A stretch of DNA of 49,244 nt, taken from the IMG/VR virus record IMGVR_UViG_2526164598_000014; one strand, given 5' to 3'. The notes under the pieces are model-generated. The model saw only the letters and a list, made by a program, of their open reading frames with translations. It searched no databases and was not told the origin of the DNA. Of this stretch, positions 42,430 through 48,713 are shown piece after piece (the stretch's first letter is position 1; each line of letters opens with the position of its first letter). The translations under genes and the position numbers were made by a program. Source of the stretch: a virus (taxonomy: Duplodnaviria; Heunggongvirae; Uroviricota; Caudoviricetes).

Positions 42430-45251
42430 TGAAAAACGTTTATGTGAAACCGCCTCCGGGCGGTTTTGTCGTTTATGGAGCGTGAGGAATGGGTAAAGGC
42501 AGCAGTAAGGGGCATACTCCGCGCGAAGCGAAGGACAACCTGAAGTCCACGCAGTTGCTGAGTGTGATCGATGCCATCAGCGAAGGGCCGGTTGAAGGTC
42601 CGGTGGATGGATTAAAAAGCGTGCTGCTGAACAGTACGCCAGTGCTGGACAGTGAGGGGAATACCAATATCTCCGGCGTCACGGTGGTGTTCCGGGCCGG
42701 TGAGCAGGAGCAGACACCGCCGGAGGGATTTGAATCCTCCGGCTCCGAGACGGTGCTGGGTACGGAAGTGAAATACGACACGCCGATCACCCGGACCATC
42801 ACGTCGGCAAACATTGACCGACTGCGTTTTACCTTCGGCGTGCAGGCACTGGTGGAAACCACCTCAAAGGGGGACAGGAATCCGTCGGAAGTCCGCCTGC
42901 TGGTTCAGATCCAGCGTAATGGTGGCTGGGTGACGGAAAAAGACATCACCATTAAGGGCAAAACCACCTCGCAGTATCTGGCCTCGGTGGTGGTGGGTAA
43001 CCTGCCGCCGCGCCCGTTCAATATACGGATGCGCAGGATGACGCCGGACAGCACCACAGACCAGCTGCAGAACAAAACGCTCTGGTCGTCATACACCGAA
43101 ATCATCGATGTGAAACAGGGCTACCCGAACACGGCACTGGTCGGCGTGCAGGTGGATTCGGAGCAGTTCGGCAGCCAGCAGGTGAGCCGTAATTATCATC
43201 TGCGCGGGCGCATTCTGCAGGTGCCGTCGAACTATAGCCCGCAGACGCGGCAATACAGCGGTATCTGGGACGGAACGTTTAAACCGGCATACAGCAACAA
43301 CATGGCCTGGTGTCTGTGGGATATGCTGACCCATCCGCGCTACGGCATGGGGAAACGTCTTGGTGCGGCGGATGTGGACAAATGGGCGCTGTATGTCATC
43401 GGCCAGTACTGCGACCAGTCAGTGCCGGACGGCTTTGGCGGCACGGAGCCGCGCATCACCTGTAATGCGTACCTGACCACACAGCGCAAGGCGTGGGATG
43501 TGCTCAGTGATTTCTGCTCGGCGATGCGCTGTATGCCGGTATGGAACGGGCAGACGCTGACGTTCGTGCAGGACCGACCATCAGATAAGGTGTGGACCTA
43601 TAACCGCAGTAATGTGGTGATGCCGGATGATGGCGCGCCGTTCCGCTACAGCTTCAGCGCCCTGAAGGACCGCCATAATGCCGTTGAGGTGAACTGGATT
43701 GACCCGGATAACGGCTGGGAGACGGCGACAGAGCTTGTGGAGGACACGCAGGCCATTGCCCGTTACGGTCGTAACGTCACGAAGATGGATGCCTTTGGCT
43801 GTACCAGCCGGGGCAGGCACATCGCGCCGGGCTGTGGCTGATTAAAACAGAACTGCTGGAAACGCAGACCGTGGACTTCAGCGTGGGCGCAGAAGGGCTT
43901 CGCCATGTGCCGGGCGATGTCATTGAAATCTGTGATGATGACTATGCCGGTATCAGCATCGGCGGGCGCGTGCTGGCGGTAAACAGCCAGACCCGGACGC
44001 TGACGCTCGACCGTGAAATCACGCTGCCATTCTCCGGTACCACGCTGATAAGCCTGGTTGACGGAAGTGGCAATCCGGTCAGCGTGGAGGTTCAGTCCGT
44101 CACCGACGGCGTGAAGGTGAAAGTGAGCCGTGTTCCTGACGGCGTTGCTGAATACAGCGTGTGGGGGCTGAAGCTGCCGACGCTGCGCCAGCGCCTGTTC
44201 CGCTGCGTGAGTATCCGTGAGAACGACGACGGCACATATGCCATCACCGCCGTGCAGCATGTACCGGAAAAAGAAGCCATCGTGGATAACGGGGCGCACT
44301 TTGACGGCGACCAGAGCGGCACGGTGAATGGTGTCACGCCGCCAGCGGTGCAGCACCTGACTGCCGAAGTCACCGCAGACAGCGGGGAATATCAGGTGCT
44401 GGCGCGCTGGGACACGCCGAAGGTGGTGAAGGGCGTGAGCTTCCTGCTCCGTCTGACCGTAACAGCGGATGACGGCAGTGAGCGGCTGGTCAGCACGGCC
44501 CGGACGACGGAAACCACTTACCGCTTCACACAACTGGCGCTGGGGAACTACAGGCTGACAGTCCGGGCAGTAAATGCGTGGGGGCAGCAGGGCGATCCGG
44601 CGTCGGTATCGTTCCGGATTGCCGCACCGGCAGCGCCGTCGCGGATTGAGCTGACGCCGGGCTATTTTCAGATAACCGCCACGCCGCATCTTGCGGTTTA
44701 TGATCCGACGGTACAGTTTGAGTTCTGGTTCTCGGAAAAGCGGATTGCGGATATCAGGCAGGTTGAAACCACAGCACGCTATCTTGGCACGGCGCTGTAC
44801 TGGATAGCCGCCAGTATCAATATCAAACCGGGCCATGATTATTACTTTTATATCCGCAGTGTGAACACCGTTGGCAAATCGGCATTCGTGGAGGCTGTTG
44901 GTCAGCCGAGTGATGATGCATCCGGTTATCTGGATTTTTTCAAAGGCGAGATAGGGAAAACCCATCTGGCTCAGGAGCTGTGGACGCAGATTGATAACGG
45001 TCAGCTTGCGCCTGACCTGGCTGAAATCAGGACGTCCATTACGGATGTCAGCAATGAAATCACGCAGACCGTCAATAAGAAACTGGAAAACCAGAGTGCG
45101 GCAATTCAGCAGATACAGAAGGTTCAGGTTGATACAAATAATAACCTGAACAGCATGTGGGCTGTGAAGCTGCAGCAGATGCAGGACGGACGCCTTTATA
45201 TCGCGGGTATTGGTGCCGGTAGTAAGCGGCTCGTCAGAACCGTATTGATAT

Positions 45252-46823
45252 TTACTGAGAGCTCAGATCAACTTTCCAGGGCAACAGATCGCGTACCCGG
45301 TTTGCCGGCCAGTCCTGGATATGTTCAATGACGTAGCGCAGCCACTTTTCTGGCTCCACATTGTTCAGACGGCATGTGCCGATCAGCGAGTACAACACCG
45401 CCGCATGTTCACCACCGCTGTCGGAACCCGCGAACATCCAGTTTTTCCGGCCTACGGCCACTCCCCGTAAGGCGTTCTCTGCGATGTTGTTGTCGATTTC
45501 CACCCAGCCATTACTGCAGTACACGTTCAGTGCATCCCACTGTTTCAGCAGGTATGCGAACGCTTTTGCCGTATCTGAGTGACGCGACAGTGTTTTCATC
45601 TGTTGCTGTATCCAGTCATACAGTGACTGCATCAGTGGCGCGGCTCTGGTTTTTCTTGCCGCCAGACGCTGTTCTGCTGAACAGCCCCGGACCTCTGCCT
45701 CGATGGCATACAGTTCACCGATACGCTGCAGGGCTTCCGTGGTGATGTCGGTGGGCGCTCTTGCATGCACATCGTGGATTTTTCTCCGGGCATGAGCCAT
45801 ACACGCGGCTTCCGTTATTCTGCCGGATTCGTATAACGCCCGGTAACCACCGTAAGCATCGGCCTGAAGCACACCGCTGTAACCGGCCAGGTGATTTTGT
45901 GGATGGATACCTTTCCGGTCCGGACTGTACGCGAACCAGACCGCCGGGGGCATCTGTGAACCGGCGTTACGGTCATCACGGACGTAGACCCACAGCCGGG
46001 CTGTCCGGGTTTTACCGCTGCCCGGCTCCTGGACCGGGACGGGGATATCATCAGCATGGACTTTACCGGGCATCAGCACATACTGGCGCAGGACGTCATA
46101 CAGCGGCTCCAGTAGTTCAGCAACGGCACCTGTCCAGCGCCCCAGTGTGGCACGGCTCAGCTCCACACCCTGACGGCGGTATATCTCTGACTGGCGGTAT
46201 AACGGCAGATGGTCTGCATATTTTCCGGTGACGACATGGGCCAGGAGCCCCGCTCCGGCATAACTGCGTGCAATGGGTTTTGAAGGTACTGGTGCCTGCA
46301 CGATATGGTCGCACCGACAACAGGCCAGTTTCGGACGTTGTGTTTCGATAACCTTAAAGGCGCTGCTGATAAGCTCCAGTTGCTCTGACACATCACATCC
46401 CAGAGAACTGAGTTCACCACCACAGGCAGGACAGCATTCCTCTTCCGGCCGGATAACCCGGGTTTCACGGGGAAGTGAGGCCGGTAACGGTTTACGGGCT
46501 GAAGACTGGCGCAGGGCGGATGGCAGTACCGGGTCATATTGCTCACCCAGCGTTTCCGCCATTTCTTCCTGAAGTGCGCTGATTCGCTCCTGTGCTTCCT
46601 GTATCTGCCGTTCGGTTTTTGCACGAAGTTTTTCTGAGCTTTTACCGAACTGCATACGTTGCAGTTTCGCAACCAGCGCCTTCAGCCGGTTGATTTCGGA
46701 AGCATAAGCCGCCACCCGCTGTGAGAGCAGGCGGTTGTATTCAGCCATCTGGCGTATGGTGTCCTGTTGCGTCTGCAACAGTGCCCGCAGGCGGGCGTTC
46801 TCATGAGCAAGTGAGGTGTCCAT
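45252..46823 (-). CDS. tnpC: IS66-family transposase TnpC
   Basis: 523-aa ORF with N-terminal coiled coil, CxxC zinc-finger pair and DDE-type core. Confidence 0.88.
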
Positions 46824-46842
46824 ATCCTCACTTTACAACGGG

Positions 46843-47190: not shown

Positions 47191-47867
47191 CAGTGGCTGC
47201 TCCCTTTTATTTCGCGGATAAGTGTCTGTAATAACGCCGGCGTCAGTTTACCTTTAAGCCTGAGAGTTCCGGCCGGCAGAACCAGCTCACAACACAGACT
47301 GTCGGACGGTGTATTTATCTGCTCTGGTTCCTGTGCGGGGGCCGGGATTTTATTATCCGGCTCCGGCGTTAACGTCACGGGAAGCAGTGCCGGCATATTT
47401 TTTCCGGAAGGCAGCAGGCCACCTTTCCGGTATTGATGGCGCCAGTTGAAGAGCAGGTTATCGTTGATTCCGTTTTCCCGGGCGATCTGCGCCACACAGG
47501 CTCCGGGCTGCAGTGACTGCTCCACTAAGGCGATTTTAAACTCATAAGGGAAGTTGGGCCGCCGGGGACGTTTTTTTACCACGGGGGCTTCGGATATAAC
47601 GGTGCTTTCAGGACGTACGACTGGTACCGTGGAAAATTGTCCGTAAAGGCAGGCATCAAGTTCCTGCTCCGACATGCCTGCGGGCAAAGGCCACGAAAGG
47701 CCAGCTCTCCGAAAGCGCACGAACATACTACAAACTGTTGATTTTGGTACACCCAGGCGACGCCCGGCCACAACCCGGGGTAAATGTTCTTCAAAGTGAA
47801 GACGTAAAGCTTCAGTGATCCAGGTCCGGTGTTTCATACGATAGTGTCCATTAAAAATGATGGACAT
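47190..47867 (-). CDS. IS66-family orf1 (TnpA-like HTH protein; true start uncertain)
   Basis: First ORF inside the element; C-terminal half carries the IS66 orf1-like HTH segment; 225-aa reading may start internally. Confidence 0.6.
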
Positions 47868-48713
47868 TATTTTTGTAGAGCCGGAGGAAACAGACCAGAC
47901 GGTTTAAATGAGCCGGTTACTGCCGGTATTGAGAACACCCCTGACGGCATGCAGAGTCAGGTGCTGCTGGCGGCGGACAGGATTGCGATGGTTAATCCTG
48001 CGAATGGCAACACAAAACCGATGTTTGTTGGTCAGGGCGATCAGATATTCATGAACGACGTGTTCCTGAAACGCCTGACGGCCCCCACCATTACCAGCGG
48101 TGGAAATCCACCGGCATTTTCCCTGACTCCGGACGGAAAGCTGACCGCTAAAAATGCGGATATCAGTGGCAGTGTGAATGCGAACGCCGGGACGCTCAAC
48201 AATGTCACGGTAAATGAAAACTGTACGATTAAGGGCATGCTGGAGGCGACTCAGGTCAGAGGTGACTTCGTTAAAGCTGTATCCAAATCATTCCCGAAAC
48301 AGGCTGGTACGTGGGGTAACACGGAAACACCAAACGGGACGGTTACAGTCACCATAAGCGATGATCATAACTTTGACCGTCAAATCATTATTCCGCCCAT
48401 TATCTTTAACGGAATAGCGTATAGCGATCCGGGAAGTGGTAATAACCCGGGAGGTACAAGATACACGGGTTATGGTTTTGAAGTTCGCAAAAACGGTGTA
48501 TTAATCGCATCCAGAGAAACTAAAGGGGCTATTCCCGGTAGCTACAGTGCGGTTATTGATATGCCGAGTGGCAGGGGAAGCGTCACTCTGGAGTTTAAGG
48601 TTTTCCATAAAGGCAATCAGTGGGCAGGTAATATCACCGACTGTACGGTGATTGTGACCAAAAAAGCCGCTTCCGGCATCAGTATTCGTTGAAATTGTTA
48701 TAACCCATATAAG

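Follow-up and report, generated by a model that had tools for sequence, protein, structure and literature searches.

ISCro1, an IS66-family insertion sequence, interrupts gene J of a decaying lambda-like prophage

The window analyzed in the present study is the whole 49,244-nucleotide stretch of IMG/VR virus record IMGVR_UViG_2526164598_000014 (Caudoviricetes). It is a lambda-like prophage, and its head and tail genes are collinear with those of a prophage of Escherichia coli O166:H15 JNE070796. In this prophage, the tail gene J is interrupted by a 2,699-bp insertion sequence (IS) at positions 45222-47920. An earlier note, made from the letters alone, had described a 2.7-kb element with IS66-type termini, three transposase-related open reading frames (ORFs), and an exact 8-bp direct repeat at these coordinates; our analysis reproduced the coordinates and each of these features. 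We identified the element as ISCro1, an IS that is common among enterobacteria, and propose that it entered J by transposition.

The element and the interrupted J gene

The features of the interrupted locus are as follows.

42489-45221, plus strand: 5' part of J (codons 1-911), 96.7% nucleotide identity to J of phage phi458, holding a 1-bp deletion
45214-45221, no strand: left copy of the target-site duplication, TGCCGGTA, corresponding to J nucleotides 2727-2734
45222-47920, minus strand: complete ISCro1 (IS66 family), 2,699 bp, its genes antisense to J
45222-45243, plus strand: right inverted repeat (tnpC-proximal end), reading GTAAGCGGCTCGTCAGAACCGT
45252-46823, minus strand: tnpC, 523 amino acids, DDE transposase (Pfam DDE_Tnp_IS66, 8.1e-104)
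46843-47190, minus strand: tnpB, 115 amino acids, IS66 accessory protein (Pfam TnpB_IS66, 4.7e-40)
47190-47867, minus strand: tnpA, 225 amino acids, helix-turn-helix accessory protein (Pfam HTH_Tnp_1, 8.6e-15)
47899-47920, minus strand: left inverted repeat (tnpA-proximal end), reading GTAACCGGCTCATTTAAACCGT on the minus strand
47921-47928, no strand: right copy of the target-site duplication, TGCCGGTA, abutting the end of the element
47929-48692, plus strand: 3' part of J (codons 912-1165), encoding the remainder of the tail-tip fibre domain, followed by the receptor-binding domain at the C terminus

The ends of the element are imperfect terminal inverted repeats (GTAAGCGGCTC… and GTAACCGGCTC…) that are identical at 17 of 22 bases. 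They begin with GTAAGCG and GTAACCG, which agrees with the GTAA(G/C)CG start of IS66-family repeats, and both of these termini are on record for other members of the family (PMC12888890). The octamer TGCCGGTA stands directly at both ends of the element without a mismatch, in the manner of the 8-bp target-site duplications of this family. It occurs eight times on the plus strand of the window. The limits of the element were set independently of this repeat: full-length copies elsewhere with 100% identity align to positions 1-2699 of the query exactly, and when J flanks were added to the query, the alignments ended at query positions 523-3221, namely, window positions 45222-47920, plus or minus a few chance bases. 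At boundaries fixed in this manner, the chance of an exact match of the flanks at 8 of 8 positions is 4^-8 (approximately 1.5e-5). The window contains a single copy of ISCro1.

The genes of the element follow one another on one strand in the order tnpA-tnpB-tnpC, and all three products passed the curated cut-offs of Pfam and of the NCBIfam equivalog models. TnpA scored 295.8 bits against NF038385 IS66_access_TnpA (cut-off 150), TnpB 128.9 bits against NF033819 IS66_TnpB (cut-off 50), and TnpC 479.6 bits against NF033517 transpos_IS66 (cut-off 180). TnpC has leucine-zipper (LZ_Tnp_IS66, residues 46-121) and zinc-finger (zf-IS66, 128-172) regions followed by an IS66-type DDE domain (DDE_Tnp_IS66, 186-472) and DDE_Tnp_IS66_C; the match to DDE_Tnp_IS66 spans positions 1-283 of the 284 in the profile. 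The TGA of tnpA and the ATG of tnpB overlap by one base (TGATG), and tnpC starts 19 nucleotides beyond the end of tnpB. Gene order, curated cut-offs, termini, and the 8-bp duplication all bear out the assignment to the IS66 family. None of the three ORFs is disrupted, and copies with the identical sequence occupy many sites within single genomes; the copy in J is intact and looks transposition-competent.

The IS66 prototypes offer a comparison. In the work of Han et al. in 2001, IS679 and IS66 reportedly possess three genes, a DDE TnpC, and an 8-bp target duplication, and transposition by TnpC is said to need TnpA and TnpB as accessory proteins. The overlap of tnpA and tnpB in these prototypes is a four-base ATGA. 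IS679 and IS66 are different named elements, and the overlap in the window element differs in being a single base. The TnpB of IS66 elements is not known to be related to the RNA-guided protein of the same name in IS200/IS605.

The element is flanked on both sides by a lambda-type J. Phage phi458 (OP434518) has an intact J of 3,498 nucleotides, annotated as a tail tip protein, and it provides the empty site, with an uninterrupted …GGTATTGGTGCCGGTATTGAGAAC… containing a single TGCCGGTA. The phi458 J product matched lambda J (PDB 8iyk_J) over residues 1-1164 (E=0), and Pfam recognized Phage_Tail_Tip at 872-1000 and the receptor-binding Ig_GpJ_C at 1029-1164. Lambda J (PDB 8iyk, 8xcg) has the same order of Pfam domains and similarly ends in the receptor-binding domain. 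Full-length homology and this C-terminal domain identify the product as a lambda-type tip attachment protein. The earlier note was, therefore, right to name J as the target and to regard the gene as inactivated, whereas its label of tail fibre needs to be narrowed: the protein is the tail-tip attachment protein, or central fibre, and not the side tail fibre.

The break falls between codons 911 and 912 of the 1,165 codons of J, inside Phage_Tail_Tip and upstream of Ig_GpJ_C. Reading through J into the IS adds 36 foreign codons up to a stop at 45331, and the predicted product is 254 residues short: the entire receptor-binding domain is lost, together with most of the tail-tip fibre domain. When the IS and one copy of the repeat were removed in silico, the translated frame was open to the J stop at 48692, in line with the rejoining of J that had been claimed. 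In contrast to lambda J, the J of the window lies in three pieces, divided by the IS and by a frameshift at 43810-43813. A run of four G residues stands at the latter position versus five in close relatives, a base being missing relative to five other J genes, and the shifted frame ends at a stop codon at 43839-43841. After mending this 1-bp deletion and removing the IS, we obtained a 1,165-codon ORF that was identical to phi458 J at 1,150 of 1,166 positions. J is a pseudogene carrying two lesions that are independent of each other; the claim that the insertion inactivates J independently holds because the separate deletion ends the frame at 43841 by itself. By analogy with lambda biology, particles from this prophage would be unable to attach to the host.

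Identity of the element and its copies elsewhere

We compared the element with 5,426 complete E. coli genomes using megablast. Matches were present in 3,018 of these genomes, and 1,791 records had a match with at least 99% identity. ISCro1 was multicopy in many strains of this set, with a median of 2 and a maximum of 34 places per genome. Full-length copies with 100% identity, on both chromosomes and plasmids, carry the RefSeq label "IS66-like element ISCro1 family transposase" together with tnpA and tnpB.

The name ISCro1 goes back to Citrobacter rodentium ICC168. In that strain, the element has 24 copies and has expanded more than any other IS (PMC3072379). A paper from 2025 described a 2,699-bp ISCro1 that produces an 8-bp target-site duplication (PMC12115866). 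The copy on plasmid pCROD1 of C. rodentium ICC168 (50052-52750) is also 2,699 bp in length and shares 97.8% nucleotide identity with the window element, with 58 substitutions and 2 gaps between the two. Identical residues numbered 515 of 523 for TnpC (98.5%), 221 of 225 for TnpA, and 114 of 115 for TnpB. The tnpA-proximal terminus differs by two bases, reading GTAACCGGCTC in the window and GTAAGCGTCTC in the pCROD1 copy. The window element resembles ISCro1 of C. rodentium in its length of 2,699 bp, the tnpA-tnpB-tnpC order, GTAAGCG-type termini, and an 8-bp duplication; its insertion site is new. In ISfinder practice, elements are regarded as the same IS at a nucleotide identity of at least approximately 90% and a transposase identity of approximately 95%. 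On the evidence of its sequence, the element is an isoform of ISCro1.

We noted that the pCROD1 copy is not flanked by a target duplication (AGTGAAAA versus ATTGTCTG), suggesting that recombination mediated by the IS, or a deletion next to it, followed its insertion. ISCro1 was not found in positions 1-50000 of pCROD1 or in pCROD2 of C. rodentium.

We then considered how the element is inserted at other sites. Eight other copies with 100% identity (seven chromosomal and one on a plasmid) have the same boundaries, and each has its own perfect 8-bp duplication. Since these eight identical copies all have their own duplications, this allele inserts with an 8-bp staggered cut of the target. Three further copies, which are 99.4-99.7% identical and lie in the tail regions of prophages of DCE7, 1504D004, and 19KM2326N, are also flanked by perfect 8-bp duplications of their own and have the same orientation relative to J. 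A comparison of twelve duplicated target sequences did not reveal a common motif. The three prophage copies differ from the window copy in their sites, which are listed below with the positions of ISCro1 in the retrieved J-lom-stf stretches.

DCE7: ISCro1 at 4021-6719, inserted at J nucleotides 3225-3232
1504D004: ISCro1 at 4273-6971, inserted in the J-lom spacer
19KM2326N: ISCro1 at 6336-9034, inserted in stf

These insertions are independent events and are not shared with the window. The best full-coverage matches of the query containing the IS and J flanks were such insertions, with ISCro1 elsewhere in J or close to it, and not the event in the window. We considered J as a hotspot for ISCro1 and rejected this idea: ISCro1-like copies close to this stretch of J were present in only 9 of the 5,426 genomes, a count obtained with a query design (IS plus J flanks) that favoured finding such genomes, and the targets have no motif in common.

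Near-identical ISCro1 also appeared on tiny contigs in species-representative assemblies of non-enteric organisms, including Streptococcus sanguinis, Thauera sp., and Acinetobacter idrijaensis. Contig SFGJ01000083.1 of a Clostridiales metagenome-assembled genome is exactly 2,699 bp in length and 99.4% identical to ISCro1. The search of species-representative genomes with TnpC returned mostly fragments on tiny contigs, some of which belonged to implausible hosts, and did not return C. rodentium. The copies on tiny non-enteric contigs most likely represent assembly contamination.

The prophage and its other lesions

Features of the prophage outside the J locus are listed below.

1-1284, minus strand: pectinesterase-family ORF, adjoining the integrase gene
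1419-2489, minus strand: lambda-type integrase with an arm-binding domain, at the left end of the prophage
19588-20670, minus strand: OmpC-like porin gene, lying downstream of the antiterminator region (Pfam Porin_1, 3e-153)
21459-21800 and 23804-24085: halves of the phage lysozyme gene, as recognized by Pfam
21740-23864: IS21-family element splitting the lysozyme gene, with ends TGTCAACGCCAA and TGTCAGCGCCAA and a 4-bp duplication, ATAT
21797-22594, minus strand: istB
22591-23763, minus strand: istA
48763 onward: lom

We take the pectinesterase-family ORF to be ybhC, which is located beside the lambda attachment site; the prophage would then be integrated at this site. The OmpC-like porin gene is a cargo gene that the related O166:H15 prophage carries as well. 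The prophage of O166:H15 JNE070796 is the closest relative, and it has the same IS21-family insertion in its lysozyme gene, where the element is annotated as belonging to the ISEc62 family. This decaying prophage has at least three lesions, namely, the frameshift in J, the IS21-family element in the lysozyme gene, and ISCro1 in J. The combination supports the designation of the lambda-like prophage as defective, with lysis and host-attachment functions both broken.

The junction between ISCro1 and J was sought in other genomes. A 141-bp junction query gave only split, non-contiguous matches in the complete E. coli genomes, and an exact 36-nucleotide junction pattern was absent from 185,579 species-representative genomes. 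Since the junction was in no other genome searched, a relative has the IS21-family insertion in its lysozyme gene too, and the ISCro1 copy is identical to copies in current circulation, the lesion in the lysis gene appears to have come first and ISCro1 later. The insertion of ISCro1 is probably recent and lineage-specific. The simplest history is one in which a prophage with an already broken lysis gene recently received ISCro1 in this lineage.

Transposition into J and alternative explanations

We conclude that ISCro1, a member of the IS66 family, transposed into J of a lambda-like prophage, and we assign this explanation as a whole a probability of approximately 0.96. The TnpC transposase, with TnpA and TnpB as accessory proteins, would join the two ends of the IS to the strands of a target cut with an 8-bp stagger, and repair of the gaps would then duplicate TGCCGGTA; we base this mechanism on the general chemistry of DDE transposases. 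No feature of the sequence speaks against this explanation. Some points weigh against it or parts of it. The name ISCro1 derives from RefSeq annotation and from similarity to the copy in the type host, and the near-identity in sequence and length was established against the pCROD1 copy as a proxy reference. We infer both the transposition competence of this copy and the phenotype of the prophage. Furthermore, the frameshift in J is located in a short G run and could be a sequencing error, in which case the IS would be the sole lesion in J; if it is real, either the frameshift or the IS may have come first.

An assembly artefact, in which a multicopy IS was mis-joined into J without any real insertion, might be suspected because ISCro1 occupies several places in many strains, short-read assemblies are frequently broken or wrongly joined at repeats this long, and none of the other genomes searched had the exact junction. 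However, a mis-join would not yield a perfect 8-bp duplication at both ends of the IS, nor a J that can be restored in frame, and eight genuine insertions have an identical architecture. We regard an artefact as extremely unlikely. It is also very unlikely, although slightly less so, that the element is a different IS66 member, such as ISEc8, IS679, or ISEc22/23. The RefSeq designation "ISCro1 family" is a label at the level of the family, and one paper gave ISCro1 at another site as 2,824 bp (PMC8764528). These points are opposed by the 97.8% identity to the C. rodentium ICC168 copy over the full 2,699 bp and by the published ISCro1 of the same length with an 8-bp duplication, while the match to the ISEc8 family was only approximately 71% over one third of the length.

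Another explanation accepts the transposition and adds selection to it: by ending the production of infectious particles, the insertion may have been favoured because it locked in a prophage with useful cargo. The presence of the porin gene and lom, three lesions that independently affect lysis and tail functions, and the occurrence of ISCro1 in or beside J, lom, or stf at different sites in other genomes are consistent with such domestication. On the other hand, the loss of J leaves cell killing upon induction intact, and there is thus no obvious benefit; genomes with an ISCro1-like copy near this part of J were as rare as stated above, even under a query that selected for them; and the target duplications share no sequence. 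Because the lysozyme gene was already disrupted, as in the relative, and J has a frameshift, further lesions are expected to be neutral. Nothing suggests that the ISCro1 copies in the J-lom-stf regions of other genomes are more than chance hits in dispensable DNA. We consider selected domestication to be improbable, although it is the least improbable of these alternatives. The transposition of ISCro1 into J is most simply read as part of the neutral accumulation of ISs in an already crippled phage.

The insertion may also have had a consequence beyond the loss of J. An in-frame ORF with a GTG start (47829-48692) begins inside the end of the IS and encodes the receptor-binding domain. If the 3' fragment of J were expressed alone from this ORF, it might act in the lysogen as a receptor-blocking or superinfection-exclusion factor, and the insertion would then have made a new function, not merely a loss. 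A scan of 45000-48800 for an outward promoter that would drive this fragment did not reveal a sigma-70-like site, and terminator-like hairpins were at the level of chance. We consider expression in this role to be highly improbable.

The transposition of ISCro1 into J involves a known IS and a known mode of insertion, and it is an ordinary step of prophage decay and a kind of event that is already known. The gain is in annotation: the element is named as ISCro1, its boundaries are fixed exactly, and J is marked as doubly disrupted. Since the exact junction was in no other genome searched, it could be used to mark the lineage of the source strain. In enterotoxigenic E. coli, the identical IS allele is proliferating on chromosomes and plasmids, which hints at the background of the source strain. 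Among the 100%-identical copies listed, most were in probable enterotoxigenic E. coli, such as TW11681, TW10590, WS1933D, 300709, and others; we presume that these host strains are enterotoxigenic because we recognized them as such or from their names and stool origin. Plasmids of Escherichia, Shigella, Salmonella, and Klebsiella likewise bear the element.

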